The notes under the pieces are model-generated. The model did not search any database and had not been told where the DNA came from. It saw only the letters and a program-made list of their open reading frames with translations. Source: Blasia pusilla (Eukaryota). From it: a DNA stretch of 64,000 nucleotides. The DNA lies in contig CM114271.1 in NCBI GenBank assembly GCA_050084515.1, positions 39,494,001 to 39,558,000 of the forward strand, written 5' to 3'. Of the stretch, positions 6,951-62,620 are shown one piece after another. How positions within the stretch are numbered: position 1 is the first letter of the stretch; every line of letters begins with the position of its first letter. Position numbers and translations under genes: made by a program.

Positions 6951-7237
6951 CCGGGGACAAAACCGGACAGGGAAGAGGTAGCGCCGGCAGGGAGCTGCCT
7001 GAAGTCTTGAACGCCGGCCAGATTGACGAAGCCGGTTGGACTTTCCCGGCAGTGTAACTGGGATGTATTCAAACTGCCAAGCATTTTCCGACCGGAGGAA
7101 GGAGGTGCCGGGGCCCGACAGGTGTCAAGAGGGTAGTGGACAAGGGGGGGAGTGTGCAGGTTCATCCAGCCGTCCCTTCTAGGGTGCGGATGATCGGAAT
7201 CATCGGACGGCAAAGTGGGAACCGGGACTTGCGAGTC

Positions 7238-7930: not shown

Positions 7931-8699
7931 TCGATGCGGTCCGGAAGCACAACTCACCCGGCGCGAAAAAGAGAATAAAGGCCTCACCGTACCTCTTCGG
8001 CATCCTCATCGGGCTCGGACAGTAATTTTTAGAAGATTAGTTTTTTACATTTAGATCGAGGGAGTAGGGTCGATTGTGCTCGAAGCATTTTATGAGTTGC
8101 AACTCATTTTCGCTCTCTCCTCCTCGAATCTGAATGGTCGTGGCGATATTTGCTTACTCTCGCTTGTCTTGGGCGCCTTGTTGCTTGATTGCTCATTCTT
8201 ATTATATTCGCTCAATCTTTGATTGCTCTCGCTGCTCGATCGCTAATTCACGCTGCTCCATCATTTCTTGTGATTGTAAAGCTTGCCAGCCACCGCACCG
8301 TAGGTGAAAAAAAGTGGAAGAAATCGGACGAAATCGGCTGTCTCATCGACTTCCGGGAGTTGGACAGGCGAGTGTAACTCACTCGAGTCTCGACGCGCTC
8401 ATCCAAGCCTCATCCCCGCTATTAGGACTCGGTTTTGGGACTCGGGGAGAGAGTTGGGGAGACCCGCACACACTGCATTCTCCTCCTAATCGCCACTCGC
8501 TTATTTTCCTGTATTCTCTCAGGAGTTAGGGAGTTGGGGCCCGAGGGAGTAGGGGTCAGGGACTTGGGTTTTCGTTGCACTCTTGTATCTCTCTCTCTCT
8601 CGCTCTTTGTTGAAGTTTTGGGAGCCTTTCATTGGTTCTGTAACTTCTGTAAACCCTTGAAACCGTTTGAGCCTAAACCCTTTACAAAGGGTTTCAAAG

Positions 8700-16520: not shown

Positions 16521-17339
16521 ACCAAACCCAATCCAAAGCAGGGCAAAGCTGGGGAAGTCTTGAGTCAAGAGTATACAGAGGCCGTGCGTGAGGGTATTAT
16601 GAATAGTGCTACGAGTTAGAGGTGTAGGATGCCACAATCTGAACCCACTCACATCCTCAAGCACAGGAAACTACGACTCTAAATGTCTTAAACTAATGTA
16701 GTCAAGAAGCAGCCTATGCTGCCCCAATGCACAAGTTATGAGCAACAATAGGATCTCTGATGCAGTACAACAAAAGCTACAACACTAGAGAGCAATTGAC
16801 CTCAATCGATGCCATAATCAAGCTCGACCATAGTCATCATCAAGGAGACATCTGGGTGAGGACATTCGGCCATGACTAGGGCTTTGCAACATGACACAAA
16901 GATTGCTAGCAGCGTGGTTACAAGGCCGCAAGAGATCTTGCAGCGCAAACTAGGGAACTGCAACAAGAGCAAAAGCGCTCACAAAAGCGTGGGTACAAGG
17001 CGGAAAGAGACCTATGAACGTGGCTACTAGGGTTTAGGGAATAGGACTAGGACTCCAAGAGCGAAAGCATGTCACGGAGAGTGAGAGATACAGCTATGAG
17101 TTGCAGCAGGAACGAAAGGCGGCCGAACTAAACAGGCAAGAAAAGACACATTTTGGAACCGAGGCTCTGAGTGTAGCAGCAGAGGAAACGGGGACTCAGA
17201 CATAGTACATAATAGCAAGAAAGAGCGCATCAACGAGAAAGAGCACACAATACCAGGCAAGAGCGTCCTAAGCAGGCAAGAACGCAGTGACAACCGCAAG
17301 CAAGCACAACGCACACATCTCTTGCTCTTGCTGAGTCGA

Positions 17340-42900: not shown

Positions 42901-44149
42901 GCTACCACTAGGGCTCTTCAAAGAAGGCTGGTAACTAGTAGTAATAGAAATAGATCTATGAACTTGTAAATTACTATATTAGCCGATATGTTATAGCCAC
43001 TTGTGAATTCAGAACACAATGATAAAGCACAATAGAAAGCAAACCTTGGGCTAATACAAGTAGACATAAGTAACAGATTTCTTTATTAAGCAAATGACAA
43101 CCGGTAGATTCGCCTATATGAAAATATATGTGCACTCCATCTGCAAGTTGCAATATACAACCAACAGAGGAACAAGAGGTTAAATACTCCTGAAGAAGCA
43201 ATGTATTGAGAACAACACTTTGAAAGAAATGTGTACAAACGATGGAATCATGTACATTGTATATGTTTTGAAAATTTCTTTTACACATTCTCAAAACCAA
43301 TAAAATTGTTAAGTATATCAGGTAGAGAAGACTTTTTCTCTACCAAGGCTAGAAAACTATTATGAAAATGTGGCCATAGTGATGGAATATTGCCACTGGT
43401 ATTGTTCCACATACGAACACTTGGCAAAAACAACGCTGCAAACAATCATTAATCAGTACTAATCCGGGAATATTAGAAATACTTGAAGCAGAGTATATAA
43501 ACACCAAACGATGAAACATAGATGATAACACTTACATGTCGCCCTGCAGGTGTTAGATGCATTTCCTTTTCTTGGGTCTTGGAACTGATCCGCCTTAATA
43601 CCGCTTGTCAACCTTGCAAAGTGGGCTATAACTTGCTGGCGTGTGAGCTCGGCCTCATTGAAATCAATTCCTTTAAGAGCCATCACTTCTTTCTGAATTC
43701 CTGTAGAAAATAATTTGGTAGGTAAGCATACATATTTTAAGGGAAAAGAAGCCTAAATAACTGAGAATTAGTCCAAAATTGACAAAGCCTTGGGATCATA
43801 TTTACCTATTGCTGGGGGTTGCTTCCTCAACTCGCAAAATGATGTAACCCATGCCTTACGCTGATCTATCATGCGACTCAGTTTCTCGGCTTGTAATACC
43901 ATCATACCAGTACGAAGAATTGAGGCCTAAACTATTTGCGTATCTGAGTTGGGCATCGGTTGGTGGAACAATCTGAATGTTTGGTTCGTCGGCGAGTGTA
44001 GGGAGGAGTCCAAAATCATCTTTGCAAAGTCCAAATAGGACTTAGGTACCTGGACATATGGTTGTTAGTTTGGCATACCACAATTTAAAGTAGAAATGGT
44101 TGGGCGAAAAGTTTTTGACAAACCTGAGTAGTGCGATTGGCTTTTAATA

Positions 44150-45990
44150 TCAATGTTGGACGTAAGCAAAACTTTACATCCAATAGCTAAATACTAGAGT
44201 TTATGAAAATGATGATCAGATATCCACTCATTGAATTGGGGTTCAGGGGGAGCATCAGTTGAAACATGGAATGGAAAGATCTTAACTACACCAAATAACC
44301 GGCGTAACGCAACAATATTGAATAGTTTCACAATTGCACGGTGTGTACAAATCACATGGGCAGAATCATCTATGTAATCCATAGTTGTGTCTTCATTGAC
44401 AAAGGAGTTTCCAAGGCAGTTGTCTATTTGTTGTTGTATAGGACACACACACTTCTTATGTAAGATAAAACCCCAAAAATTTAGGATCATTGGAGTATTT
44501 AATAGCGGTTTGCAATGTAAATTTATTGTTGTTGGCAAAGAATGGTGAAGAAGATAAGTGGCAGAAAGAACAGATTGGCTGAACATTATGACGACAAACA
44601 TGAGGAAGTTGACATAAATCTCCTAGCAAAATGACAAGTTTAGTTGAGAAAGGATCTAATGTTGTTGAGGGACACACTTGGTGTAACCTCATAGTAACTA
44701 TCTGTAGGAGACGCGGCGTAAGCTTGGAGCATTAATCAATCACTATCACTTTTGCCTCTTTCAGACGCATGTAGTGATTTGAACCTATCTGCATTGTAGC
44801 TAGGTCTTCCTTTATAGGTATACCAAACGTAGAGTGCACGGTCATAGCATTTCTATGCAGGCGCACGATAGCAATTCCAGTAGCTGCAGTGAAAAGTGTG
44901 GGAATAGACTGAGCTGACCAAAATGTTTCCATGAATTTAATAAAAAAAAATTTACCACAACCAGGTGGCCTAGTGATCAACACAAGGCCCGAAGAAAGAG
45001 TCCAGATTTTGGGAAACAGTTCTACTTGCTCTGTGTTCAATATATCTAGGCGAACACTTGTTGACTGGTTGTCTAATCCAGAAGCGTTTGGTAGGGTGTT
45101 AGGTTGCTCTACAACATTAATAAATGAATCTACAGACAGGTCAAAGCAAATGTGTGGTGCAAGCACATCTAATGTTTTAGAGACGATTTTGCTAGTGTGG
45201 ACTTGGATCCACAAGTTTACAACATTACGTTCTTGGATTTCATCAACGATACAGGAATAAATTTGAATATACCCCTATGAATACATTCATGCAAATATGT
45301 CCATGTAGGTGAGCTTACTGACAATATCTCAGATTCAGATCGGAAGGAGATATTCTTCAAAAGCACTTTGTAAAAAAATTCGTCCCACTAATGCAACACA
45401 TGATATTCACTAAACCAAACAAGCATGTCTATTGTGTACACTGAGTTACCCACCGCATCAACACCAACAAGACTAGTAGAAGAGCATGTGTTTAGCCTAG
45501 AAACTTCATATTGGCTCCAATATTGAGTAAATGTTAAGTGAGATAAGCATTGAGGATGACTGCAGTATAGCGCAATAGGATGTATGCAAACAATTGATGC
45601 ATTTTTGTACAATATAGTGCGCAAATGTGGTGGACTAAAATCCATATATTCAACTGATTGTGATCTAGTAATAATTGGGATCTTGAGAGCTGTTTGTTAG
45701 TGCTGCTTCTGTAGAAGAAATAAAACTATTAAGAACTAGCCCAGATATTGGATGTAATCTTGTCATGTCCAAACTCTCAAGGCCAAGATACTTGGCACTT
45801 CTTGTATTAATGTTGAGTGCGCCATGTGGCTCACATTTTAAGGCATATTTCAGTAGATAAAACGACCATTGTACGTTTGTGACATGCTATAAATTCATGT
45901 GGGCACCCTTCCACAACAAGATAGTTGGGTGATATGGTATGACATTCCTATGCAGTTCACTCCGTCTGTATATGAATTTGACGACATCTT
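44150..45990 (-). pseudogene. Helitron RepHel remnant (Rep C-terminus + PIF1 helicase)
   Basis: RNVIPYHPTILLWKGAHMNL...YLLKYALK (~45835-45960); LNTEQ, LITRPPGCGKF (Walker A), AATGIA, TVHSTFGIP, VIVID (Walker B), LLGDLCQLP, VICTHRAIVKLFN. Confidence 0.85.
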
Positions 45991-46119
45991 CAGAAAGGGT
46001 GGCACATGTAGCCATGCTCCTCGACTATCAAGTGGTAGAAAGTTGTTGATAATGTACATAATACGAGAGGAGAAGACAAACATGGAAATTGTAAGGGAGT
46101 TGGGGGAAGAAGTGCTGCA

Positions 46120-46436
46120 TGTCATGACCATTCGGATTATGTCGTAGAGTATAGTGCTGGTAGAGGCCATTCCTTATGTAGGACCGTAGTGGCTTGGTAG
46201 AGATGCGGTTCCATACATAGGGTTGGGGGTTACTCACTTGGGCTTGCCCTCAAAGAACAGTCAGTTCTTTGAGTTGAGCCTGTTGCGTTGGGAGTTAGCC
46301 TTGGTAGTGAGTAGAGCTCTTGGCTATGGTGTTTCCCGCAAGCTTCGACCTAGATTCTCCCATCGTGGAGTGGGTTTGGCTCGATTGTATGTGATTATAA
46401 ACGTGTTTTATGACAGTAGGTCTTTCACGGATTTCA
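46120..46436 (+). repeat. Gypsy terminal repeat segment A1
   Basis: Matches 55045-55416 apart from a ~55-bp indel. Confidence 0.93.
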
Positions 46437-47816
46437 CTCAAAGAACTGGAGTAGATCGATGGTAGCTTCGATTATAGATGAGTAGGATCTGGTTAGGGCT
46501 GATTGTGTACTCAGCCGTGGATGTTCGCGGCTTGTTGCCTATGTTGGAGGTGTGAATCAGGTGCGTGGTTGGTTGGGAAAGAAGCGCCTTGCTGAGAGCT
46601 TTCCAACGCGCTGTAGATCGCCGGATTTCGTCAAGGGAGTTGGAAGTTATCAAGCATTGAAGATTCTGGTTCGTGTTCGACAGTTTTCTGATGTGGAGAG
46701 CTTGGAGTGCGGAAGCTCTGTTGAAGTTCATCCAGATCGGCTCAAGGTCTGGCTATGGTGGACAGCGGATCGGAGGGGCTGGTTGGTTGGTGACTCGTTC
46801 ATTGTTGGAGACGCCTATTCCGTTGGGGGCGCCCTGGTTGGACCTCTCTCCATAGCGAAGCATGGCGAACGGGGCATGTCTCGGCGTTTCGAGGCTTTGA
46901 GGCAACTCGTGGTAGCTCGGGGCGAGTGGGCGTGAGAGGCGGAGTAAGGAGCAAGCAAGCAAGCTTGCTTGCTTAGGCGTGAGGCAATTTTTGCAGGATT
47001 TGGGATTTGAGTTTTGCATAACTGGTCACCCATCTTTGGGCTATTCTGCCCGGAGGACGCTTAACTGCCGAGTTCTTAACTATGCCAGTGTACAGACTGT
47101 TGTAGCTCATTTGGTGTTGTTCGTAGATGTGTTAGGCGCTTTATGCATCTCAGGTTTTTGGTTGATGTACCTCTAGTGCATAGTACGGTGTAGCCTCTCC
47201 ATGCAGGTGGTATTTTTGGTCTTTTTGGCGTTCGACTAGCATGTCATCGACCATGGCGCGGAGTAGCTATTGCGTTAGAATTGTGTGGTGGGTTTTGTGG
47301 ATTCAGAGGGCACCACGTTTGGTGGATTGTGTTACCTTGATTTCCATTTGCGATTGGAGGGTTGTCGTTGGATTTCCTGTGTTTGGATCCCCTCCATCGT
47401 GCTTCTTGCTTGCGCGCCCATTGTTAGGGTTGACGCTGATTTCCAGAGTAGTGTTACTCTTGTGTGCTACCGGTAGTGAGGCTGGAGGGATGACGAGTAG
47501 ATTGTGGGAGACTTCTTGTGGTGATGACAAGTTAGGTTGCCTACACCCATAGCTAGTAGAGCTAGAATCGTATAGCGACATCGACGCGTCACTTGGTAAT
47601 TTGGTGGTGGTGCGGCATCGGCGTTGGTCATCACGGAGGCTGTCGGGTGGTACGGTTGGGGACCGTGGTGCGGACAGTGGTGGTTTCACACGGAGTGGAT
47701 TTAGGTATCGGCTACCTTTTCCACTTCCGACGGTTGATGAAGAGGAGGACGAGGGTGTTCCAAACACCGAGTCTTCTACGTTGTTATCGAGTGTTGCAGC
47801 TCCATTGATTTGGGAC

Positions 47817-48913
47817 ATGGACGGTGGATATGGGGCCATGAAGGGCCCACGACGATACTCGGGTGCAGTGGGTACCATTGAGTTGGAGGACTTCATGCAA
47901 AAGTTTGATACATGGTGTGATATGCAGATGTTGCAGAACGCCACGTTGTTTACACCCTTCTTGGCTTGGAAGGGGTTGTTTCAGCACTTGGAAGGACCAC
48001 CCATCGATGATTACCATGAGTTTAGGAAGGACCATGTTGCTGAGATTGAGGCATGGAGACAATATTGGTCTCCAGGCTATGTGTCTATCACCCATGGTGG
48101 TATTGGTAGTAGTGCTCCTACTATGCCAGCCAGCCCGATGTTGAGTGGTACGAGTACGAGCCGGAGTGGGGGTACCAGTGGAGGTACTAGTGGGGGTACT
48201 AACTAGTGGAGGTACTAGTGCCCCACCATCGTTTAGCCCGGTTGCAGAGTTCTTCAAGAGGTTGAAGAAGAACTATCAAGGAGTGAAGACGGAGAAGTTG
48301 AGGAATCTTCAGGACTTTGAGCGAAAAGACTGGTGAGAGTCTTCGTGAGGCATACACGCAGCGTATGCGACGCTTGATTTCGATTACCAGGGTGTGACCG
48401 AGGATCATGCGATCGATTTTTGGTATGGGATCTTGGACAGAGATTTGCGCCGTAGGGTGCGTGATGCTACTCTTATGAGTGATGATTCACCCACATTGAC
48501 CCATGTGTTTGCTCTATCTGAGAAGATTGAGCTTAACATGGTGAAGGAGAGAGTTGTGACATCCGCATTCAGTAGGGATACAACTACTACTTCTCGTGTT
48601 CAGCCGCCCACCTCACAATCTCGTAGTAGTGGTGGTGGTAGTAGTAGTGGGAGTCGTGGGGGGTACACGCGACCTCAGTCAAGTCCTAGAGGGACATTTG
48701 TGCAGAGACCATTGCCTTCATTTGCTGCCCATAATAAGGGGACAGTCATGTTGGACATGTGGAGGTGATCATGTTAGGAAGTTTTGTCCCCAAGAGGATG
48801 GGAGACGGACTTTGGAGGATGGGCCTCAGTGGGCCCCAACTCAGTGTGATCATTGCGGGAGACTAGGTCATCCTCGAGAGCGTTGCTTTGATCTTCATCC
48901 AGAGTTGAGATAA
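47817..48913 (+). pseudogene. Gypsy gag with two zinc knuckles (frameshifted)
   Basis: GPRRYSGAVGTIELEDFMQKFDTWC...; CWTCGGDHVRKFC and CDHCGRLGHPRERC. Confidence 0.8.
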
Positions 48914-49699
48914 GGCCGTGGCCGTGGTGGAGTAGCTCCGAGAGGCCGAGGTGGTAGAGGTGGACCAGTGGTTGGAGAGCCTACGGTGGCTACCCCTACC
49001 ACTACGACAGAGTCAGCTATGGCTGCCAGGATTGAGCGATTGGGAGAGAGTTGGCTACTATGGGGTATCCAAAGATAGATCAGTTCGGGAGCGGGGCTTC
49101 CACCTCTTATGGAGGGATGATCTCTCTTATATGACGAAAAGACAAAGACTGAGGTTGAGGCATCGGTGTGAATTCTGAGAGGAGCCACTCGAGCGTCGAG
49201 CCACGTGGTGCTCTTGGGAGTTGGACCCACAGAGGGGTGAGGCTAGGAGGCGGGCTAGGCTTCCCAAGTCATTCTTGTTGTCCGAGGTGCTTAGGACTCC
49301 ATCCATGGTTCCTCACGCGAGCCTATTGAGCCAGCAGTGGGGATCGAGGCATCTACATCGCGTGTAGTAGACACGGATGCAACATCCAATGCAAGATGCG
49401 GATGGCAACCGGTGTTGGGATCCCCATTGTTTTCGCCACACGGAGCGATGGCTTTAGGAGTTGACTTAGCTCTGTATTTGATTAGCGACCACGTTGTGTG
49501 AACGTGGGGTGTTATTCTTGCTACACGTGTTGAGGTGGATGAGGGTGTTGCGGTGGAGCGACCCTCTATGTCGGGAGTAGCATTGAGTACCGGTGCTACT
49601 GGCAGCAAAGAAAGGCGAAGATGGATGCATTACCAACCCGGCCACCATTGATCGTGAGAGGCTTACACTGGTGTATGTATGTTGGACAACCGGAGTGGG

Positions 49700-50100
49700 A
49701 TCTTCCGATTGGTGAGTCCTACAGACAGGTGTATAGACCAGATAGAGTCTTGTTAGACTCGGTGCCCAACCTTTAATTTGATGTTGGGAAAGGCGGCATG
49801 TATTGGTTTGGATATTCGGAGGTCGAGCTTGAGCCTTGCCCATTCCAGATTCAAACATCACTTGGAGGAGCCAACGATAGGTCTCAATTCATGACACGGG
49901 AGAAGTTTTCATGCTGTTGAGACCAGATCATGCGACCGATAGCTCCCGTTGGGAGTATCTACGGTAGTCACATCATCGAGTCGTATGATGTACTAGTTGG
50001 AGGAGCGATGATTGTACCCGATGGGTTTTCAGATGGATTCTCGGATGAGGCGTCTTATAGACCAGGTTGGCAGTCCGGGATGGACGTATGAGCCAAGTTC
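49700..50100 (+). pseudogene. Aspartic protease remnant
   Basis: agagtcttgttagactc-ggtgcccaacct reads RVLLDS(G)AQP with a 1-nt deletion at ~49760. Confidence 0.65.
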
Positions 50101-50469
50101 TGTGAGATTTATTTCGGGGCTCGACCAGAGGGTCTTCCCAACAAAGTGTTAGCATCTGTGGTCTGGTTTTAGTGGAGTAGTCACTTGGCCAGGAGACTTT
50201 TTGGAGGGTAATGTTTACGCTATGGATTCTCCTGCCCATGAGGAGGTAGAGGAGGTCCCTATTTTTGCAGCAAATGGCATCCTCATCGTTGGATGTGCCA
50301 CTTTGGAGTTCAGCGGTGCACTACGGCAGAGGCGTCGCCTAGTGCAGAGGCTTGGTGTGAGGTCGTTATACCTCACGAGGAAGAGGACGCCCACGGCGAA
50401 CTCCTACTACTGGCCCAGATTGGGTTATCCCCTTTGGATACTACACCCATTGTATGGCGATATCCGGAG

Positions 50470-51410
50470 GGCATTTGTGTGTTAGATCTCTTTGGTGGGA
50501 TTAGCAATGGTTTGGCGGCGATGTGCAGGCGGTATTCTGTCATGGAGATACGTGTATGTGGAGCAAGATGAGACGGCCGAGAGTCTCATCCCGACATATT
50601 GGTCGATTGATGCGGAGATATCTGAGTTGTTGCCGCCATCGCTATTTGTGGGTACTGGCGTGCTTTACCATCACACATTGCATTGTTAGAAGCGCAGGAC
50701 CTTGAGAGGGTTGGTCTGTGGATTTGGTGATTTTTGGATGGCCATGTCGTGAGTCATACAAGTCTTTGGTCGTGGTGAGGGATTACATGACCCTAGGTCT
50801 CGATTGTTTTGGGAGATGTTACGGGTGTTACGACATCTTTAGGTTCATCAGGCACGTGCTCTAGCTTACATTCTGGAGAATGTTCCATTGTTGGGTGACA
50901 CTCGGACCCGGATAATGGCGAGTGTTCATGAGGTGCGGTCTTGGATTGGACCAGCGGTGTTGTTGGATGCAGCACGAGTTGGCTCGCGTGCACATCGTCC
51001 ACGCTTGTGGTGGACAAACTTGTTGCCTAGGGAGGTTCTACGTCGAGCATATGATGCAGTGCAGCGGGATCCTCGCCTTACAATGGATAGTATCTTGGAT
51101 ACTGGGCGACTTTCTCAAGTGGTGAGGGTTATTGATCGGTCACCCATGGCAGTGGTGAACCATGTGGGCCAGCCTAGGATGGCACTACCCACATTTGTGA
51201 GTTTTCAGCGTCACATGCCTCGAGGAAGGTGGTCCGGGGCTTGTATGGGGATTCTCATGTGCGGGGATTGGTGGAGCCTAACGCTGATGAGAGAGAGCGT
51301 GCGATGGGATTTACTACTGGTGTGACAGCGGTTGCTTCTATTTCTAAGGCTTCATGACTTCATGTGTTGGGTCAAGCCATGGACCTGAATTTTTTGACTT
51401 GGATTTTGAG
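50470..51410 (+). pseudogene. DNMT3-like C5 cytosine DNA methyltransferase domain within Gypsy pol (frameshifted in this sequence)
   Basis: Motifs in canonical order: I VLDLFGGISNG (50479), II YVYVEQD (~50550), IV VDLVIFGWPC (50718-50747), DPRSRLFWEMLRVL, VI YILENVP (~50876), VIII DAARVGSRAHRPRLWWTNL, IX EPNADERERAMGF (~51273), X LGQAMD (~51367). Confidence 0.9.
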
Positions 51411-51779
51411 TCTTGGTATGGCCGAGCAGCGTCGACTTCGGACTATGTCTGTGGGTCTTCCACCCCTTGTAATGAGCTCGATGGCTACTGGGGACGGTAG
51501 AGGCATCGGGAAGCGAGGAGAGTAGTATTTTGCATCCTTGGAGTAAATGGGATGTAATGGTTGGGCATGTGGAGTTGGTTGCTCATCTTTGGTGGAGGAG
51601 TTATTTGCTCGGATGATGGTGTAGCTAAGGGTGTATCATCTTGTGAGGGGGTTGCGAGCGACCAATGGCATAAATCCTCTTCCTCTAGTATGCTAGTGGA
51701 GGAGACTTGGGAGCCATTACTTGGGCCCAAGCTTACGGGAGGTGAGAAACGACGCTGACACGGTTCCTACGTGCTTATA

Positions 51780-53130
51780 GGAGTTGTTTTGCCTTTAGCA
51801 TGAAGGAGTTGGGTTCTCTGGTTGGACCCGGTATAATGGATTGATTTGGCTAGTGATACGCCAATCTTCCGTCGTCCCTACCAATATAGTGATATGGAGA
51901 GGGACCTGATTCAGAGTAGGACGTTGGACCTTTGGAGGCTGGATTAGTGGAGTTGTCGCATGGAGAGTATGCATCGCCCTTTGTCATGCTCGCTAAAAAG
52001 GATATGCATGGCAACTACACGGATAGGCGGATGTGTGGAGATTACCGCCCTATCAATCGGCAAACCAAGGCCGATAGGTATGCCATGTCTACACCGAGGA
52101 GATCTTTGATGTGGTGGGACAGCAAAGATTTTCAGATACTTTGGATCTTGGCAGGATACCATCAATTGCCGATTCAGAGAGTGACAAGGCCAAGACAAAG
52201 ATTTTGGGGTGTCAACTCTCATGGCAAGGATTGTTTGTACCGGTGGAAATTCTTACCCTTTGGGTTGAAGAATGCACCTGCCGAGTTTCAAAGAGTGATG
52301 GGCGGGATCCTAGCGAGGGTTGGATTTTGTTCGGTGTTACATTGATGATATCTTGGTGTTGAGAACACGGTGGAGGAGCATCGATACATTTGCAGATGGT
52401 GTTTGAGTGGTTGAAAGCTCATGGTCTACGTTTGCATCCGGAAAGTGTAAGTTCTTCCATGAGGATGTTGAGTACTTGGGTCATGTGATCTATCCAGGTG
52501 GTTTGGGAGTTCAAAGCAAGCAAAGGTGGAGGCTATTGCACTTATTCCGTCCGGTAGATGTGAGTAGAGTTCGAGCATTCATAGGATTGGCGAACTACTA
52601 TCGGAGGTATGTGAAGGATTTAGTGCTATGGCAAAGCCTTTGAACCAATTGCTGAAATCAGATCAAGAGTGGCATCGGGAGATGATCAGAGAGAGCTTTG
52701 GGGAGCTTAAGGCCAGTTGGTGGCGGCGCCTATCTTGAGGAGACCTATCGAGGGCGCCCATTTCGATTACACTCGATTGGAGTAGGTTGGGACTTGGAGC
52801 GGTGTTGACACAACATGATGATGAGCACATGGAGTTTGTGGTGGCCTATGCAAGTCGTTCGAATAATGCAACGGAGTCGCGCTATAGTTCATATGAGGGA
52901 GAGTGCTTGGCAAGAGTATGGGTTGTGGCACACTTTAGGTGTTACTTGTTTGGCACACGATTTACCCTTGTTATTTCGATCACCACCCGCTCAAGTGGTT
53001 GATGGAGTCGGACAAGCTTACGGGGAAGCTTGCACGGTGGGCTCTTATCTTACAAGAGTATGACTTCCGGGTGGTACATAGACCTGGAGTTGCCAACCTT
53101 GATCTTCGATGGGTTGAGTAGGAACCCATG
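51780..53130 (+). pseudogene. Gypsy reverse transcriptase and RNase H (frameshifted)
   Basis: RMCGDYRPIN, GYHQL, LPFGLKNAPAEFQRVM, YIDDILV (~52338), YLGHVI, RAFIGLANYYRRY; GLGAVLTQ, VAYASRS, YSSYEGECLA, DHHPLKWL, KLARWALILQEYDF. Confidence 0.95.
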
Positions 53131-53499
53131 TACTAGCCAAGAGGATATAAGCGGGGCTAGATGGCATGGCGAGGTTGATGAGGAGATGGTGCCAGGTTGG
53201 CATGCATCCGCCTTTTATGTTGGTTAGGGTGGACTCTAGTATGGAGGACCACATGATATCTTACTCTAGTCGAGGGTAGATGGCGGCCTTGGATCCTTAG
53301 GTTGGAGATGGTTATACGGATCAGCGTGATATTCATGATGATGCGTTGGTGTTGGAGTTCCTACGGACCAGTAGGGTGCCAGGCATAGTGAGTGCCAAGG
53401 AGCGAGACCGTGTTCTTCAACGTGCTAAGAGGTATCGATTGGAGGGAACACATATTCTCCGCATGTGGGAGGATGGTAGAGTACGAGTAGTGCCACATT

Positions 53500-54300
53500 T
53501 GGCTCAGAGAGAGCGCATTGTGCGACATGCCCATGAGGAGTTGGAACATTTTGGGGTAAAGCGTACGTATAGCTTACTCCTTGGCCAGTATTGGTGGCGT
53601 GGCATGCATACTCAGTCAGCAGATTGGTGTCACGTTGTATGGTTTGTGACCGGGTGAGGGCATCATTTAATGCCCCTACACCACAATTACACCCCTTGCC
53701 TATTATAGGGTTGGGTTACCGTTGGAGTGTGGACTTTGCGGGACCGTTACCATTGACTGTACGACATCATCGATATGTGTTGGTGATGGTGGAGCACTTC
53801 TCCAAGTGGATTGAGTTGGTGGCATTACCGGACAAGGCAAGTGAGGGAACGGCGTATGCGTTTCTGGATAGAGTGCTTAGTCATTTTGGTGCACCGGTGA
53901 AGTCTTGACCGACCAGGGTACAAAGTTTCAGGGTGAGTTTCGTCTTGTGTGATAAGGCATTGATTGATCATCGGACCACGTCTTGAGATCATCCCAGGCG
54001 GATGGTTTGGGTGGCGTGTGGTTCGAGGCGGTGAAGAGGGCATTGCGCAAGTATGGCCTCTGAAGGGACATCTTGGAGACTAGGATATTCGATTTGCCAT
54101 GGTTAGCCATAGGGTATAGGTTCGATCGCCAAGCATCCTTGGCTTCCTTCTCACCTTATTTTTCATTATACGGCGAGATCCGGACTTGCCAAAGCAATTT
54201 GTCGGGAGTCTAGTGAGGTGGTGGACCTTGATGACCCCAGAGATGTGGATGAGGGTGTGTTCTCTCGTAGGCGGAGCTCTTTCGGAGAGTTATGCCAATG
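53500..54300 (+). pseudogene. Gypsy integrase (HHCC + catalytic core)
   Basis: HAHEELEHFGVKRT...CMVC; RWSVDFAGPLP, YVLVMVEHFSKW, LTDQG. Confidence 0.92.
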
Positions 54301-54627
54301 GCCTTTGAGAATCTTGCCATTGCTCAACACAGGGATACGTTGCGGTATGCAACCATTCGGGTGGAGGTTATCGACCATCGATTCAGAGGTTCCATGTGGG
54401 GACTATGTCTATTTATTTGCGCAGATTGCCCCGACAATGTTGGATGTGACGGCAGCCGCACTATTTTACGAAAGTGCGTGAGGTGTTAGCTTCGGAGTTC
54501 TCATGTTGGAGGGTCGTGATGGAGTTATTTGGAAGGACCATGTGCGTAATTGTGCGCCATGTCATCTTCCAAATGTGGATGGTGTCTTGTTGATCCAAGC
54601 TTAGCCATGATACGTGCTAGCTTGAGG

Positions 54628-54769
54628 TGCATGTTGTGTGGGTCTGCGGGTAACGCGGCCCGTATGTTGGTGTGTGATCGGTGTTCTAGGGGTTGGCACA
54701 TGATGTGTTTGACTCCACGTTTGGATGTTGTTCCTCTTTGGAAGGTGGGTTTGTCCTCGATGTACTTAG
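54628..54769 (+). pseudogene. PHD finger at the pol C-terminus
   Basis: CMLC...MLVCDRCSRGWHMMCLTPRLDVVP../WVCPRCT* gives C4HC3 spacing with one frameshift near 54740. Confidence 0.9.
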
Positions 54770-54938
54770 GAGAAGTAGATGACTTGATCTTTGCATGATA
54801 TGGATTACAGATGTGCGACTAATGATGGGGCAACCTAGCACCCGGCCTTCGATTCGGGCACCCAAGAAGGTGTATAGCATGTAGTAGATGTATAGGCTAC
54901 CGGGAGTTAGAGGACCTAACCGCTTGATTAGGGGGCGA

Positions 54939-55522
54939 GTTGTGGTACACTTGCGTTTGTGGATACTCGTCTATGTTATGTATGTATGTGAGTATGGTAT
55001 GTCGATGTATGTTGTATGACGATGGGGATTCGTGACGGACAATTTGTCATGACCATACGGATTATGTCGAGAGTATAGTCTTTGGTAGAGGCCATTCCTT
55101 ATGTAGGACCGTAGTGGCTTGGTAGAGATGCGGTTCCATACATAGGGTTGGGGGTTACTCACTTGGGGGTGACTTTCCCAGTAGGGCTACCAACCGCTCT
55201 TAGGTTGGAGGATATAAGGTGGCTTGCCCTCAAAGAACAGTCAGTTCTTTGAGTTGAGCCTGTTGCGTTGGGAGTTAGCCTTGGTAGTGAGTAGAGCTCT
55301 TGGCTATGGTGTTTCCCGCAAGCTTCGACCTAGATTTTCCCATCGTGGAGTGGGTTTGGCTCGATTGTATGTGATTGTAAACGTGTTTTATGACAGTAGG
55401 TCTTTCACGGATTTCAGTTGTGGTACACTTGCGTTTGTGGATACTCTCGTCTGTGTTATGTATGTATGTGAGTATGGTATGTCAGCGATGTATATTGTAT
55501 GACGATGGGGATTCGCACGACA
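54939..55522 (+). repeat. Gypsy 3' terminal repeats B1 (54939-55041), A2 (55045-55416), B2 (55417-55522)
   Basis: gttgtggtacacttgcgtttgtggatact...gacgatggggattcg..gaca occurs both before and after the second A copy. Confidence 0.92.
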
Positions 55523-56600
55523 TGCACCGTTGGAAGATTGACCGAATCTAAACTTCTATTGAGATGATTCCGTGTGTCTCCAAGATGTACAGAACCTTAG
55601 AGAAGATATAGCAATGGAATCTTGGCTTCGACATTCAAATGAAAATCAGAGCATTGCAAATTATGTGCAATTATACCTAGAGGAAGTGTTCTTTTACCAG
55701 GCTTACAAAAGCAAGGAGTGTCAATTCATATTAGGATTCTGGTTTGAATGGATATGCTTGATGTTAGTTGAGCATGGAAATGGGAACATAATTTGCATGG
55801 ACTCGACATTTGGGACAAACAAGAACAAGGTAAATTCTGCAGGACCTCTCTATGGATCATAGGGGGTGGTCAGGGAGGGAATGTGTTACAATATTGAAGT
55901 CGCAATGTTGTTGATAATTATATCTGGAAATTTGGTACTGTCAATGTCTAATGTTGCAATTGTATTGTGCGTTAAGTTTCCGTTGTGCACCGTCATGGTA
56001 TATGATAAGTTCCACAAAGGGATCCCTGTAGCTAGGGTTTTGAAAAACTCATGCAAAGAGGTGGACATCGCCAATTAAGTGGTTAGAAGAAGGTTGCAAT
56101 TAGTGGGCATAAACAGTCATGCAATGAATGGAACCTGGAGTTGGATGTTCCATCAGTGCCAAGTTGCATAATGACAGACTACTCATTGGCAGAAATAAAT
56201 GCACTCATGTGAGTAAGCTCTGCAGTTTCCACTTGTGAGTATGATGATACATGATGCCTTACTAGACTTTGTAATTGTGTGTGGTTTGCAAAATTTGACA
56301 CAATGTGCATTCTGCCGTGAGCAAGCAAGTATTTAACAAAATCTCGATCATCCTCTACTTGTGGCATGTCCGCCACGATTGGCACAAGCATTTAAGAACA
56401 AAAATCTTGGATTACGCATAACGATGTGAGATTAGCACAAGGTTGGGAAAGATCATGTACACAAAGCCAACTTCGAATGAAGTACTTTCTCATGGCCGGG
56501 ATGTGGGCATGGCTCCATTGGCTTCAACATTAAAATCCTTGGAGGCTCTCTATGTTGACTTCTCTTCGAGACAAACTTTCTGCACTCTTCCCTCCAATAT
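55523..56600 (+). pseudogene. Mutator (MULE) transposase remnant interrupted by the Gypsy insertion
   Basis: IICMDSTFGTNK, FPLCTVMVYDKFHKGIPVA and LWHVRHDWHKHL are MULE DDE-domain motifs; the sequence probably continues left of the Gypsy at ~46040-46119. Confidence 0.8.
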
Positions 56601-58198
56601 ATTTGGAACTGACATTCATTTGCATTGCCTTGGGCATAATGCAAAAGCGTTTAACTATGTATTTCGTGGTGGCTTCCATGGTTGCATGTGGACAAAGTCC
56701 GTGTCCGTGCATCACTCTTGAAAGGGCGATGTATTCCATATAGCAATTTCAATATTCCATCATCGACAATGGCATTGGTGAAAAGACAATCAACGGCAGG
56801 AATTATATATGACGTCTATAATTAGAATACTCTACATGTGATTGCTCTTGGAGTTCGAAGGGAAACATATGTAAACATCAGCTTTCATGACTAGAAAAAT
56901 AGGAAATGGTGATGTTGGACAAATACAAAACCCTGGTGTTGGACAAAAAATTATCACAAGCCATGGCAGCATGGTGAGCAATTGGCCGGAAAATTGTACA
57001 TAGGTCGTGCAAGTCCTTTGCAGAATACAATAGCATCTTAGTCGCTTGTCATGACCCCTTCTGAGTGCTTCGATATTCTTGGACACAGCGACAAGTTCAG
57101 ATACAGGTTCCTTTTCAAGAATGGAAGTAACATCGTCTCCTTTAGAGGCTACGACATCAAACAACGCTAGGTCTTGTGTGACACGGACTGTACATAAGAG
57201 GGTGTTGTATAGATTAGAGATCTAGATACATAAATTCCTATGATAGTAACCATCGTTCTCGGCGCTCTACACCAAAAAAATATCACCTTCCCGAGGATCA
57301 AGGCAATATGTTCCTTTTTTCCAAGCTATGTAGTTCTCGTAGTCTGCGGGGAGTTTAAATGGACGCTTACGACGAAAGTTCGTCCGAGTTGAATGGATTC
57401 CTGAACTGTCAGAGTTCGCATTCTTAAGTTTGTCCATCGGTGTCACTTCACTAGGCGCTTGGTCCATCGTAGGGCGCACAAGGGATATAGAACACCACAT
57501 AAATACAATTAATAACCCAAAACACATAATCCGAACAAGGAGGTAACCTCAACTATCAACTACTCCGAGGTGAAGATATGGTGTGAAGAATGAGGCAACA
57601 ATCTGAGATACGAAACATACAAAGCGCAAGGACATAGAAGGAGATGAAAACAGACAAAACGAAGCACAAATAAACCAAACTAAACTGCATCTAAACGAAC
57701 CTCTGCCAGCGTTCCTCCGCTCGTCCCACCGCTCCACCTCGCGTAGCTCGGATAAACAGCAAGAGACGACGAGGAAACTCACGCTAGAATCACTCCACCT
57801 CGACCATCCCGCAACTTGGATAAACAAGGAATGGATATACCGCAGGAAACAAAGATGAAATGGCCAAAACGGAGCAAATGGGCCTTCGAACTGCCTATAA
57901 AAAGTCAAGGCGTCTTTTAGGCATCCCGCCTAAAACAGGAAAAATTAGGCCGGACCGCAAAAATGCCCGCATTTCATATTCAAAAGCCTCCATGATGCCG
58001 CGGTTGGCATGACCATGTACTATCCCAGGCTATGGCATCATATGCCCGCCATCCCATTCTAAGACCATTCTATGATTCCATGATTGCATCATGGCGACGG
58101 CCATCGGTCCATGGAGAATGCCATGGTTCTGCATCGCATGCAGGACCATGGCGTATTCAACCATGGTTCTGCGTTGCATCGGGACCAGGAATCCGTAA

Positions 58199-58319
58199 GG
58201 ATGGAGAGGATATCCGTCACTGGACGGAGCTATCCCGGGCTGGACACCCGAACCCGTTTGCGCAAGGATGGAGAGGATATGCGTCACTAGACGGAGCTAT
58301 CCAGGGCTGGACACCCGAA
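58199..58319. repeat. 67-bp tandem repeat whose second unit is split by hAT copy 3 (resumes 62621-62644)
   Basis: ggatggagaggatat.cgtcact.gacggagctatcc.gggctggacacccgaa|cccgtttgcgcaagga. Confidence 0.9.
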
Positions 58320-61300
58320 CAATGAACGGGGAGATCCGGGGTTGTGAGTAATGCGAAGGGTCCGAGGGGCCCTTCGGTGGGGTGGAGACCCCACCGCATG
58401 CAAACCAGGCCTCATTCGTGGCCTTTCACTTCCGACTCCCATGACCCAAGTGACTCCAAAGTGTTGCAGCGTTGCTGTTCCATGCCCAAGCTCTGGTTCT
58501 CTATCATTCTCATTTTCGTTTCCTGTGCGACTTCGGAGTCTCGACGCCTCATTTTCGATTCCTGTGCGACTTGAGTCTCTACGCCTCATTTCTTGACTAT
58601 ACTATTCAGTTTGGACTCAGGGTGACGAGCTCTGCTGAAGCTTTTTTTCTCATTTTCTCGGATTGAGGAGTCTCTCGAGCTTGCCTCATGCTCGAAGTGT
58701 TGAGCATGCTTACTCTCGTGGAGCCCAGACAATGGAGTCCATAGACTCGGGCATCCAGCTTGTCTTTGTTGTCTACATTTTGCTTTAGTCTAGGGTCGTG
58801 CCACTTTTGTCTTTCATTGTATTGCCGATGATTTTCTCAAGTAGAGGGACTTCTGTCTTGCAGGGATGCTCATCTTTGTGCTCTTTGTTTCATTTTTCTT
58901 GCATTGTGGCTACTACTCTCTTGCGGCTTTCTCCTCGAGTCTCGTTTGTAGCTTTTGGCTTGCTGTCACTACGGTCCCTCTGTCCCTATCCCACGCGGGA
59001 TTCTGTTGCTTTCATCTTTAGATTCTCGCGTTTGGGGACTTCGGTTTTGCAGGGAGGCTCATTTTCCTGCTCTTCGCTTTGTGTATCTTGCATTGTGTGG
59101 CTACTATCGTCCGGCAACTATCTTGCATTGTGCATATTTTTACTCGAGTCTCTTTTGCAGCTTCTGTCTTTTGTTGTAATTGCGTCCCTCTCCCATACGG
59201 TCACCGCGTTTGTCACTGTCCGTGTATCAGGTCCGTATCAGGTTGGTTTGATTCACTTCATTTTTCTCATCGTCTCTATCTTGCAGATGTGCGATCACAC
59301 AATGGCATCTCTATCTTGCCGCCAACTGCTCATGCGTCTCTATCTGGCTGCCGAGTGCTCATGATCGTAACATTGCTGCCACATTCTCAAGTAGAACTTG
59401 CGATGGCAATTACTCAGCTTTGAGTGTGGCACTTCAGCCGCACCTTTCCCTTGAACCCCTACGGCATCCGATCTTGCAGCTTTTGCTGCTCTGGTCTATG
59501 CCTCACAAGAGCCTGGGTTCCAAGCTTCTGAAATTTCCATGTGTTAGTCCGAAGCTCCTGATGAAATTTCCTTGTGTTAGTCCGAAGCTTCTGATTTACT
59601 TGTATTAAACTCAATTCCCCTCTGGTAGTCTTGTGAGTCGCTTTTCTAAGCTAGTAGAAGGAGATTAGAACTCCCTGTATATAAGAACTTCATTTTTGTA
59701 GTTCTCATGGCCAAACGCCAGAGAACAATGAATGAACTGTTATTCAAGGAGGTTCCCAAGGAACAACGTGACATCATAGCTCTCTCTGGATCATCTGATG
59801 AGAGGGATGACCAAAGCATATTAGGCAGCAATGGATCGATTCCTGAGAAGAATCGTGTAGCTTGGAAAGACGTGTGGTATACTATGTACGATTGGATAAG
59901 TTTTGATCCAGAAAGTGGGAGGATTCATTGTAATGTTTGTAGGAAAGGTAAAGGCAAGAGTGTATTTGCTAGGGATGGTGCTATCAATTGTAAGGTATCG
60001 GCATTCACAGATCATGCAAAGTCAAACGAACACATAAAACTTTCTTGGGCCGCCCATGGAGGTAAGAAGTCTATGGCTAAGGCCATAGCTACATCCAACC
60101 GAACATGTGAGGTTGCTTTGCTGACTTTATTCAGGTCTGCATACTTTCTTGCAAAGGAGGCCTTGCCTTTTTCAAAATTCAAGTCTCTCTGTAAGTTGTT
60201 GCTTGCTGTGAATGCACCTATCACTAGAGACTTGTATCAGCATGAGAAAAGTTATAGTGAGATGTGTTTCTTCATAATCCAAGTTTTGATGAAGAAGACT
60301 CTAGCTAGAGTTCAGGCCTCTCCTTTCTTTGGGATCATGATCGACTAATCTACAGATATATCTGTGACAGGTCATTTAGTGGTATTTGCAACTTTCATTG
60401 AAGAGGGTCAAGCCGAGTGTTGTTTTCTAGGCTTGCTTCATTGTGAATCCAAATGCTCAAATGCTATCACTAACATTCTGTTGGAGTTCATCAAAGATGG
60501 AGGACTAGAACATTAAAAAATGGTAGCATTTGGATCCGATGGTGCCTCTACAATGGTTGGGAGGCAAACCGGGGTTGCTTCACAATTGAAGCAAAAGGTG
60601 AGCCCATATTTTCTTTCGGTGCATTGTGTAGCCCATAGGACGAACCTTGCAGCTTTGACAGCTGCAAGAGCACCTCATTGCAAGGGAATTTTGATAGAAA
60701 TCGATTCTATTCTGAACGCTGTAGCAGGATTTTTCAAAAGGTCTTCCAAGAGGAAAGCCAACTTAGCATCACTTCAAGAAAAGTTGAATGACTCTCAACG
60801 AGTCATGAAGAGGTATTATAAGATCAGATGGTTGAGCCGGTGGCAAGCTGTATGTACTTTGTGTGATTCATTGGAGTCTGTATTGACATATTTTAGGGAT
60901 ATTCCTTTGTCTGAAGATGATGGGAATGCCTCAAATTTATACAACAAGCTAAGATCATTCCAAATGATCTATCAGTTATATTTTCTTGCTGATATTCTTT
61001 CTAGCCTTGCTAACTTGAGTAAAATCTTTCAGTACAAGTTTGTCGATGTTAGCACTATTGGTAGCATTGTTAGCTCTGAGATAGCTTCTATTACCATGAA
61101 TTATGTCCTAGAAAGTCAAGATTTGAATGCATCTACTTTTTCGGAAGAAACAGGTTATCATATCCCACCTGATTTTGGACCCCGTGATGGATATCTAAGA
61201 CGTTTACAGTCTGAAATTAGGGGTAGTAAGTTTCATAGCATTGATATGTTGAGAGACCGCACCGGGAGAGATCTAGAAGCTGCTCTTTTACTTCAAAAGA

Positions 61301-62620
61301 CATATGCTGAAAGTGTATGTTCAGCTTTGCAAGATCGGTTCAGGGATAACAATCTGATTGGTGCAATGAAAATTTTGAACCCTTTACACATGCCCTCCCG
61401 ACAAGTTGGGTTAAGCAGTTGGGGGTGTAAGGACTTGGAAGACTTGTGTGGACATTTTGGATGTGAGTTACCATTGAGGGGAAACTTACAACCATTTGTT
61501 ATAAACCCGGCTGCTGTCAAACAAGAATTTCAATCCTTCAAGTTGATGGCTACTACAGAGTGGAAAGATCGCAATTTCAGGGATCTATGGGCAATGGTGA
61601 GTTGGAGCCCAACTTTACAATGTAAGTTTGCTAATTTGCTTGTCTTGGCAAATGTTGCAAGGGTGCAATGTGTTAGCACTGCCATATGTGAGAGGGCTTT
61701 CTCAATTCAGAATATGTTAAAGACCAAGTCACGTAATAGATTATCTACTAAGCATCTAGATGCTGTTTTGAGGATTGCTCTAGAGGGACCTGTAGATGAC
61801 TTTGATGACATGTTGGCCGACTCTGTAATTTTGTGGAAAACTTTTGCACATTTCAGATACCTGTATGCTAATCCTGATAGGTACATGAATTCTGAAGCTG
61901 ACGTGCAGTTTGATGCCCCATCCCTAGACATGTCCACTTGAAGTGAGTTTGTTTTGTAGGATGTAGAGCCCCTCTAGAATACTTTGGAGCTTTGGATCTC
62001 CCACTATTGTAGAGGGGCAAGATCCTTGGTTCCCAAGTGGTTGGGGAGCATGGCCAGGTTCAACTCCTGCCAAGGATGCAATAGAGTCCACTAGGGGTCC
62101 AAGGAACTGTCTTTCTTCCTTTCTTGCATTAAGCAAAGAAGAGATAGGGAGGAGGGATCTTAGGGACAAGTCATGCTGCTATGATGCTTTCTTGCAACAC
62201 CATGGGCCACTACAGCATGGGCCACTACATAGATGTGAAGGACAAAAATCCTTCCTTTGGCGTTTGGCCATGAGAACTACAAAATTTGTTCTCTTAACTC
62301 CTTCCACACCATAGTGTTTGTGCACAACGAAAAACAAAGGAAGCGGAGAAAAAATCCATGCCCTATCCCCTATCAGAATGAGGCTTGTAAATTTACGGGC
62401 ACAAGTTAAAGCTGCAGGAAATTTTATGCCTCCCGAAGAATGAAGGGGAAATGGCTAACAGAAATTGAAAACAACCAGAAAAATAATCGTCCCACATTTT
62501 GAATTTCGGATCTGAACCGAGTGCTAAAAATAACCCCAATTTTGTTTGGCGTGACGAATTTTTCAAGACCCTAAAATACTTCTACTAAGTCGAATGTTTA
62601 AAAAAACTCCCCGGACCTTG
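58320..62620 (+). mobile_element. hAT DNA transposon (copy 3), complete, with 8-bp TSD
   Basis: TSD CACCCGAA at 58312-58319 and 62621-62628; ends caatgaacggggag... and ...ctccccggaccttg. Confidence 0.96.
59707..61941 (+). pseudogene. hAT (ZNF862-like) transposase, single frame with two premature stops
   Basis: 744-codon frame with TAA at 60346 and 60514; CNVC..H..H finger, GIMID*STD, GSDGAS, HCVAHRTNL, IRWLSR, VSTAICERAFS. Confidence 0.95.

Follow-up and report, generated by a model that had tools for sequence, protein, structure and literature searches.

A 64-kb stretch of Blasia pusilla DNA (the window, meaning the whole 64,000 nucleotides analysed here) holds at 46120-55522 on the plus strand a single 9.4-kb insertion of a Ty3/Gypsy-like retrotransposon, and we have hardly any doubt that it is a decayed copy from a high-copy bryophyte-type family coding for a DNMT3-like cytosine-5 DNA methyltransferase (DNMT). 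Comparison with related sequences has shown that the DNMT domain is integral to this family, collinear within it and maintained by selection. DNA methylation is the main weapon of the host against transposons, and a transposon with a de novo methyltransferase of its own would reverse the usual roles. In the literature searched, cited here and below from its accessible passages, DNMT-bearing retrotransposons are reported from dinoflagellates, one charophyte, and Cymbomonas and Euglena (the EpiLTRs); the high-copy bryophyte-type family implies that the phenomenon reaches land plants.

A DNMT3-like domain between protease and reverse transcriptase

A preliminary description of the window, made from its letters, had placed a Gypsy element with a DNMT3-like domain at 50470-51410, between protease and reverse transcriptase (RT). 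Our alignments give almost exactly the same limits (50464-51411), and collinear copies, PF00145, a profile search of the PDB and Foldseek together indicate that this arrangement is a feature of the family. The methyltransferase motifs were also correctly read as lying in canonical order on the same strand, with the protease (49732-49798) and RT (52019-52490) on either side: motifs I, IV (PC), VI (ENV), VIII (RxR), IX, and X follow one another linearly in the window remnant, their coordinates being taken from an alignment of the window to the Marchantia protein P0013 (Table 1). A frameshift-aware alignment of 50300-51560 to P0004, an intact relative of 368 amino acids, covered all 368 of its residues at 50338-51430, and 263 of 360 were identical (73%). 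Of 1349 candidate proteins, 50 were matched at E ≤ 0.001 by the open piece of 160 codons at 50843-51322 (best E = 9.7e-57, 83% identity), and most of these 50 carry PF00145. A direct search with PF00145, which had been proposed as a check, was successful for the family and not for the window copy. When ten open pieces of the window copy were run through Pfam one by one, none matched PF00145 at E ≤ 0.01. The longest DNMT read-through (50762-51322, with TAG as X) reached 14.2 bits, short of the cut-off of 22 on account of its broken frame; intact relatives scored 35.1-51.1 bits against the same cut-off.

A profile of 13 family members was searched against all PDB sequences. The top matches were DNMT3A (E = 5.2e-22), DNMT3B (8.3e-19) and DNMT3C (1.8e-18), followed by DRM (9.5e-16 to 1e-13), HhaI (2.3e-7) and DNMT2 (5.7e-7), and DNMT1 was absent from the matches at E ≤ 0.01. 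The AlphaFold2 model of P0004 drew on an alignment of 50 sequences and had a mean predicted local distance difference test score of 91.7. Its Foldseek matches listed from the PDB (ranks 1-49) were all DNMT3A, DNMT3B or DNMT3C, with E values from 5.3e-19 and target-normalised template modelling scores of 0.41-0.84 (0.77-0.84 for the catalytic-domain chains among them). Judging from these best matches, and not from a rooted tree with host DNMTs, the domain appears to be closest to DNMT3A/B/C, and it is in this sense that we call it DNMT3-like. The ESM Atlas returned generic C5-methylase clusters only, and a predicted homodimer, run without alignment or controls, scored 0.00, which is evidence neither way. 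Neither PWWP nor ADD was found by Pfam in open reading frame 1 (ORF1) of P0013 or of locus L062.

The domain belongs to the family and not to this copy alone. In a scan of metagenome contigs, 107 of 241 candidate stretches proved to encode a relative, and 80 loci were retained. The window at 48221-55057 aligns to one of these (L006) as one block of 7054 columns with 78.2% identity, and L066, L041, L075, and others align similarly. The preliminary description had named family copies lacking the domain, together with insertion boundaries around it here, as signs of a one-off capture; other copies carry it in the same place, and the DNMT segment has no insertion boundaries of its own within collinear full-length relatives. 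Named relatives occur in Marchantia polymorpha (many gene models), Calypogeia fissa, Riccia sorocarpa, and several Sphagnum species. Marchantia P0014 has protease-DNMT-RT-RNaseH-integrase (IN) within one gene model, and P0013 (1278 amino acids) is a gag-protease-DNMT protein that ends after the DNMT. In run X1, from the host, the element (region 46000-55650) is matched at 92% or more by 201,643 contigs, and 64,563 of these reach at least 99%. A small share of the element's words was also present in four "air metagenome" runs.

Selection on the domain was estimated as the ratio of nonsynonymous to synonymous substitution rates (dN/dS) by the Nei-Gojobori method over the DNMT core, for which many of the deeper pairs were saturated. 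Between metagenome loci the ratio was 0.117 for L062/L064 (dS 0.27), 0.107 for L060/L062 and 0.086 for L060/L064, and the open piece of the window gave 0.246 against L004 and 0.184 against L006. In L062/L060, RT-RNaseH-IN gave 0.059, and sliding windows over the DNMT part gave 0.08-0.14. These values therefore show the DNMT domain to be under purifying selection, somewhat weaker than on RT and IN, and the dN/dS test that had been proposed thus turned out in favour of the domain, at 0.09-0.25. The ratio of 0.84 for the near-identical pair L004/L006 fits decay following insertion, as expected. DNMT identity across mosses and liverworts is ~77-79%; horizontal transfer, which we considered, may account for this likeness, and vertical descent fits too at a dN/dS of 0.1-0.2, bryophyte rates being uncertain.

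In a census of 249 full-length related transposon DNMT domains, the catalytic Cys of motif IV is kept in 247 and the Glu of ENV in 248, the two Arg of motif VIII in 245 and 247, and the second Gly of motif I in all 249. The Pro-Cys of motif IV is replaced by Glu-Cys (GWECQ), with the Cys retained, in 109 of the 249 (P0255, P0282, P0317, and others), which is unusual for C5-methyltransferases; the bryophyte family retains PC.

Reading frames, stop codon, and termini

The Gypsy-type order gag-protease-RT-RNaseH-IN with a DDE integrase is seen in L062 and, as remnants, in the window. By Pfam, Asp_protease_2 matched ORF1 of the intact L062 with E = 0.0002 and 22.4 bits, under the cut-off of 24.3. 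In the window, PF00078 matched the RT piece at 51920-52342 (E = 4.4e-6, 27 bits, under the cut-off of 29.6), and the integrase was matched by PF17921 (E = 1.7e-10) and PF00665 (E = 3e-7, 31.1 bits, just under the cut-off of 32.6). ORF1 of L062 (976-5082, 1369 amino acids) contains the protease and DNMT, and ORF2 (5086-8226), which lies in the same frame one stop codon after ORF1, contains RT, RNaseH, integrase, and a PHD finger; L060 and L034 share this layout. The natural intact copies L062, L060, and Marchantia P0013 take the place of the family consensus that the preliminary description had proposed. The reading frames of intact relatives have thus shown the DNMT to be the C-terminal domain of ORF1 (gag-protease-DNMT). 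The domain had been described as lying inside pol; in intact relatives it instead closes ORF1 at the C-terminal side, before a conserved stop. As it shares a frame with gag and protease, the DNMT would be produced in larger amounts than RT and IN.

In 47 of 48 occurrences of a W[ED]P..GPK motif, the in-frame stop stands at a fixed distance upstream and the next codon is CAA or CAG; only the window departs from this (Table 1). The contexts are TAG CAA CCC (29), TAA CAA CCC (12) and others (6). Contigs of runs X10 and X13 diverge from the window at 51656, reading TAGCAGCCAATGG / TAGCAGCC..., and other host copies therefore retain the stop. Leaky stops direct gag-pol expression in murine leukaemia virus (MLV), and the corresponding context in tobacco mosaic virus (TMV) is UAG CAR YYA. 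The ORF1/ORF2 border resembles these in having an in-frame TAG or TAA followed by CAR and differs from the TMV context in reading mostly CAA CCC.

The PHD finger and the non-classical termini are features beyond those in the preliminary description. PF00628 scored 33.7 bits on the window at 54550-54795 (cut-off 24) and 40.6 bits on residues 990-1034 of the intact L062 ORF2. The closest solved PHD fingers to that of L062 are those of CHD4, PHF12, PHF21A, KDM5, KAT6A, ATXR5, UHRF1, DPF3, and AIRE, most of which we take, as a lead only, to be readers of the histone H3 tail with unmethylated K4.

The element ends in split direct repeats, A1 ... B1-A2-B2, and not in two equal long terminal repeats (LTRs). 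The A...B-A-B plan is also present in L066, L041, L075, and L056, the 3' order B-A-B occurs in six loci (L015, L039, L041, L056, L066, and L075), and no B upstream of the 5' A was shown by search in any locus with a 5' A match. Duplications of 4 bp at the target lie outside the A1 start and the B2 end in all four copies examined (window TGCA, L066 AAGG, L075 CATA, and L041 TCTC), and the termini are inverted (TGTCATG...CA(C/T)GACA). Elements with the DIRS order of Ngaro and PAT also have A1 ... B1-A2-B2, together with a tyrosine recombinase and no known target duplication; the present element differs in its DDE integrase (PF00665, PF17921), with no tyrosine recombinase in its stead, its TG...CA ends, and its 4-bp duplications. 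A site resembling a primer-binding site (PBS) adjoins the end of A1 and a polypurine run adjoins the start of B1, while the integrated element begins where A begins and stops where B stops. Classical reverse transcription from these positions therefore predicts B-A...B-A, unlike the integrated form. The B/A junction is palindromic, and a circle re-opened there would yield A...B-A-B.

The 12 nt of the PBS-like site have a perfect complement inside A in the window and in L066 (1846-1857), with one compensatory change (G:C versus A:T), and the first 11 nt are conserved in five of five copies. A TATA-like box stands ~30 nt upstream of the complementary site, an arrangement that suggests self-priming and not the use of a tRNA primer. 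Self-priming of this type is known for Tf1, which the element appears to resemble in having 11-12 nt after A1 that are complementary to a site inside A. A 53-nt segment with the TATA-like box GATATAAGG is present in A2 (55168-55220) and missing from A1 at 46242, and the 5' promoter region of the window copy was therefore probably deleted. The repeats differ by small gaps as well, the A pair by 2 over 124 columns and the B pair by 5 over 100.

Possible roles of the enzyme

We tentatively propose that the enzyme methylates the element's own complementary DNA (cDNA) or its new insertion, a mechanism that we regard as quite possible if somewhat short of probable. As an explanation of the whole, which blends this mechanism with the identity and anatomy of the element, the proposal seems to us moderately probable. 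The ORF1 product would accumulate in excess, and now and then read-through of the stop, as in leaky-stop gag-pol systems, would give ORF2. The DNMT would be carried into the virus-like particle within the Gag-protease precursor and be freed there by the element's protease. As an active de novo cytosine-5 DNA methyltransferase it would then act on new cDNA, or on the new insertion and its surroundings, and new copies would thereby arrive carrying 5-methylcytosine (5mC). The PHD finger of the integrase may steer integration to a particular state of the histone H3 tail, in analogy to the chromodomain of chromoviruses. For retrotransposons that bear a DNMT, and most explicitly for those of the DIRS type, self-methylation of cDNA has been suggested, and SymbioDIRS-Dnmt3 gives CG methylation in yeast (de Mendoza et al., 2018; PMC5890265). 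With the DNMT beside Gag rather than beside RT and IN, and a PHD reader on the integrase, the family offers a cleaner design to reason about.

Several points weigh against this proposal, in which read-through, packaging, proteolytic release, and the substrate are all steps that we infer. The window copy, in correction of the preliminary description, is a pseudogene that cannot make the enzyme: 11 frameshifts and 2 in-frame stops (50840 and 51355) fall within the DNMT, gag-protease-DNMT as a whole has 39 frameshifts and 5 stops, RT-RNaseH-IN-PHD has 34 frameshifts and 7 stops (~73 and 12 in total), and the longest sense-strand open frame overlapping 44000-58000 is 217 codons. Most present-day copies are likewise dead, since any ORF of at least 400 amino acids is found in just 9 of the 80 metagenome loci. 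There is no sign of heavier CpG decay in the element than in its background, the observed/expected ratio being 0.75 in the element versus 0.58-0.64 in the rest of the window. The full CAR-YYA context follows the stop in 5 of the 48 occurrences, most having CAA CCC instead. Finally, methylation in yeast is reported in PMC5890265 for SymbioDIRS-Dnmt3, the other DNMTs tested there being said to lack activity, and a K. nitens insert (Knit) is named in the legend to its Fig. 5. Contigs of X10 and X13, two of four runs guessed to be RNA, cover parts of the element, 50622-51151 and 50933-51343 among them; as the RNA status of these runs is a guess and contigs reveal neither strand nor level, we did not count them as expression.

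The frame breaks of the window copy may instead have arisen in assembly, through a consensus blended from near-identical copies at a locus that is really intact or nearly so. About one frameshift per 100 bp is high for an element whose A repeats are 96-99% identical, very many near-identical copies could confuse polishing, and the X10 contig over 50622-51151 differs from the window by 4 gaps where the window has 4 frameshifts. Against this, small gaps are found in the A and B repeats too, so that indels also affect neutral sites, the Copia element of the same window keeps ORFs of 220-304 amino acids, so that indels are not everywhere, most independent metagenome copies are broken as well, and A1 has lost its 53-nt TATA-like segment. 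We therefore read the breaks as mostly real decay, on the strength of the small repeat indels, the lost A1 segment and the longer Copia ORFs, and keep an assembly artefact as a minor and improbable rival. That the motifs resemble a methyltransferase by chance, or that this single copy once captured a fragment of a host DNMT, has a probability that we put next to nil. The window pieces taken alone do fail Pfam, and nothing else was left in its favour after testing: this candidate was rejected on the E value of 9.7e-57 to PF00145-bearing proteins, the collinear full-length relatives and the 107 metagenome stretches, and in addition four bryophyte genera carry the domain and the protease-DNMT-RT order recurs in Marchantia and in metagenome copies.

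Where the family's enzyme would act is a separate matter. It may work in trans, methylating host DNA or competing transposons and so silencing rivals or reshaping the methylome, as has been argued for Symbiodinium; we consider this unlikely, though a serious candidate. Catalytic residues and purifying selection are equally compatible with it, the very high copy number in the host means that even a low output per copy could matter, the ORF1 location would provide DNMT in excess over RT and IN, and effects on the host epigenome are discussed in PMC5890265. The computed evidence is nevertheless compatible with cis and trans action alike, fusion to Gag-protease would favour confinement in particles, and the Klebsormidium methylome is described as plant-like, without the derived features of Symbiodinium (PMC5890265). 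Methylation of RNA (the element's genomic RNA or host RNA) in place of DNA was raised in the same paper for a DNMT borne by a long interspersed element (LINE) and inactive on DNA in yeast, and co-production of the DNMT with Gag, the RNA-packaging protein, would suit it. The nearest relatives by both sequence and fold, however, are the DNA enzymes DNMT3A/B/C, and the tRNA enzyme DNMT2 matched 15 orders of magnitude worse, so that we hold an RNA substrate to be very unlikely. We give still less credence, as a highly unlikely reading, to a non-catalytic partner or decoy like DNMT3L that binds or blocks the host DNMT3 machinery. Retrotransposons benefit by escaping silencing, and the domains of the wider clade with EC for the canonical PC (109/249) would agree with such a role, but the motif IV Cys, the ENV Glu, the motif VIII arginines, and the glycine that binds S-adenosylmethionine are nearly invariant where a decoy would be expected to lose them, and the bryophyte family retains PC.

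Known systems, wider distribution, and the rest of the window

Transposon-borne DNMTs have been described for Symbiodinium and Klebsormidium nitens (de Mendoza et al., 2018; PMC5890265), and the main text of that paper mentions neither Marchantia, nor liverworts, nor Sphagnum. Later papers cite it for "streptophytes (Gypsy-DNMT3)", and papers on Marchantia methylation, in their accessible passages, deal with host enzymes only. No description of a Gypsy-DNMT family in a land plant was found in the full-text literature, a scope outside which lie supplements (e.g., those of PMC5890265 and PMC12344493) and subscription journals. This agrees with the preliminary description, which knew of no characterised family in a land plant, and the present family is a land-plant addition to the already known Gypsy-DNMT3 elements. 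Its annotated, uncharacterised copies in the genetic model Marchantia polymorpha make activity, read-through, targeting, and effects on the methylome testable there. They also carry a warning for annotation, as many bryophyte gene models named "DNA (cytosine-5)-methyltransferase" are transposon ORFs.

KnitGypsy-Dnmt3 of Klebsormidium nitens is similar to this family in its Gypsy-type pol, its intronless, non-rearranged DNMT3-related domain within a polyprotein, and its purifying selection (Ka/Ks < 0.2 versus 0.09-0.25 here), and it combines DIRS-like repeats with Gypsy domains (Fig. 4c legend), which resembles A...B-A-B in spirit (PMC5890265). Going by the description in that legend only, the DIRS-like repeats may be the same peculiarity. 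The two differ in host, an alga versus a bryophyte-type host here, in a comparison made by description and not by sequence. Host DNMT3 enzymes (animal DNMT3A/3B/3C; PpDNMT3b and MpDNMT3b, PMC6453930 and bioRxiv 10.1101/2021.02.12.428880) share the linear motifs I-X and the short target-recognition region. The human DNMT3 enzymes are only 20-23% identical to the element domain in structural alignment, and the element domain differs from host DNMT3 in sitting after gag and protease without ADD or PWWP, the PHD finger being on a separate protein. DRM, which gave the next-best PDB matches, has circularly permuted motifs and its match covers profile positions 57-186 only, with the N-terminal motifs, whereas the order in the element is linear. 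SymbioDIRS-Dnmt3 and SymbioLINE-Dnmt of dinoflagellates and the EpiLTRs of Cymbomonas and Euglena are likewise retrotransposons that carry a C5-methyltransferase (PMC5890265; bioRxiv 10.64898/2026.05.21.726589), but belong to other retrotransposon classes or domain plans; in EpiLTRs the DNMT, sister to DNMT4, is reported to close pol on its 3' side, accompanied by a DAM domain and a chromodomain (bioRxiv 10.64898/2026.05.21.726589). A histone reader ending the integrase ORF is shared with chromoviruses and with PHD-bearing retrotransposons (PMC6673714, citing Kapitonov and Jurka, 2003, and Perez-Alegre et al., 2005), for whose PHD fingers a chromodomain-like role has been proposed (PMC6673714); here, in contrast, the PHD finger is combined with a DNMT.

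A profile search of 1.84 billion representative proteins gave 13,921 matches at E ≤ 0.001, 2,654 at 1e-10 and 422 at 1e-30, and the best 150 representatives include many long polyproteins. Additional named carriers are Closterium, Cymbomonas, Haematococcus, Chromochloris, and Monoraphidium. Two architectures were distinguished, namely gag-protease-DNMT-RT-RNaseH-IN(-PHD) in the bryophyte family and some environmental sequences, and RT-RNaseH-DNMT-IN-PHD in chlorophytes (Cymbomonas, Haematococcus, and Chromochloris; P0312-P0315, P0282, P0296, P0179); no description of the latter, a sister clade in green algae, was found in the literature searched. A quick maximum likelihood tree, unrooted and limited to transposon-borne domains, was made from 77 of the 249 domains, comprising all named ones, all with the DNMT before RT, the locus translations, and a random 30 + 15 of the rest, with 172 left out. 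It splits the two architectures at a branch with a Shimodaira-Hasegawa-like approximate likelihood ratio test value of 100 and requires 3 changes of architecture label, some of which rest on short proteins labelled by regular expression. No Klebsormidium protein was among the homologue matches, which came from length-bounded and shared-word-limited searches and hence are not evidence of absence. A broader picture can be drawn, of an ancient Gypsy-like lineage spanning green plants from chlorophytes to bryophytes, with a DNMT3-type writer and a PHD reader of the type that binds unmodified H3K4, an unusual intermediate leaving A...B-A-B ends, and an enzyme that, given the very high copy numbers in bryophytes, would lay a measurable share of their 5mC; we think it distinctly unlikely as a whole.

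The features of the element are collected in Table 1. A tblastn search with two Marchantia proteins matched a single copy, with no second family copy in the window.

Table 1. Features of the retrotransposon insertion in the Blasia pusilla window (window coordinates unless a locus is named).
Feature	Position	Strand	Basis or remark
5' target-site duplication TGCA	46116..46119	+	identical 4 bases at 55523-55526
Repeat A1, 5' LTR-like, TG...CA	46120..46436	+	96-99% identical to 55045-55416 in two blocks; multiple alignment with 4 other copies
PBS-like site CTCAAAGAACTG	46437..46448	+	complement of CAGTTCTTTGAG at 46262-46273 inside A
gag remnant, CCHC knuckle at 48845-48886	47817..48900	+	tblastn; frameshift-aware alignment with P0013 of Marchantia
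Aspartic protease active-site region LLD-GAQ, frameshift-split	49732..49798	+	aligned with residues 630-650 of P0013
DNMT3-like C5 cytosine methyltransferase domain, pseudogenised	50464..51411	+	alignments, motifs
Motif I LDLFGGISNG	50482-50511	+	
Motif II YVYVEQ(DE)	50543-50566	+	
Motif IV FGWPC	50721-50750	+	
Motif VI ILENVP	50864-50887	+	
Motif VIII RAHRPRLWWTN	50981-51019	+	
Motif IX ERERAMGF	51283-51312	+	
Motif X LGQAMDLN	51364-51396	+	
ORF1 end; place of the family's in-frame stop (TAG/TAA then CAR), lost here	51636..51660	+	
Conserved stop by locus	L062 5083-5085; L060 4661-4663; L034 4509-4511; L004 1470-1472; L006 11336-11338; window ~51656		lost in the window
Reverse transcriptase remnant	52019..52490	+	mapped from RVT_1 match of L062 ORF2
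RNase H remnant	52676..53061	+	PF17917, PF17919 E = 2.9e-20 on 52739-52999
Integrase remnant, H2C2 zinc domain and DDE core	53499..53995	+	PF17921, PF00665
PHD finger, C-terminus of integrase ORF	54628..54763	+	PF00628
Repeat B1, polypurine run AGGGGGCG directly before	54938..55041	+	93% identical to 55416-55515
Repeat A2, 3' LTR-like	55045..55416	+	alignment to A1
Repeat B2, true 3' end of element (...CACGACA)	55416..55522	+	match to B1
3' target-site duplication TGCA	55523..55526	+	matches 5' copy

The sense strand of the whole family is G+T-rich and C-poor, with a GC skew of +0.25 and an AT skew of -0.11 to -0.14 (46120-55522; L006, L066, and L075), and the remainder of the window has no such strand skew. 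The window as a whole is a transposon nest in which no host gene is obvious among the ORFs of at least 220 amino acids. A Copia-type element at 32738-36929 (minus strand) has gag, integrase, and RVT_2 in ORFs of 220-304 amino acids, far longer than those of the Gypsy copy. Two transposase-like ORFs (hAT-like or zf-C17orf113/DUF4371) and a remnant of a PIF1-type helicase (Helitron-like) lie at 15315-16670 (minus), 59650-61941 (plus) and 44194-45274 (minus). Two neighbouring direct repeats of 60 nt with 93% identity are found at 58194-58320.

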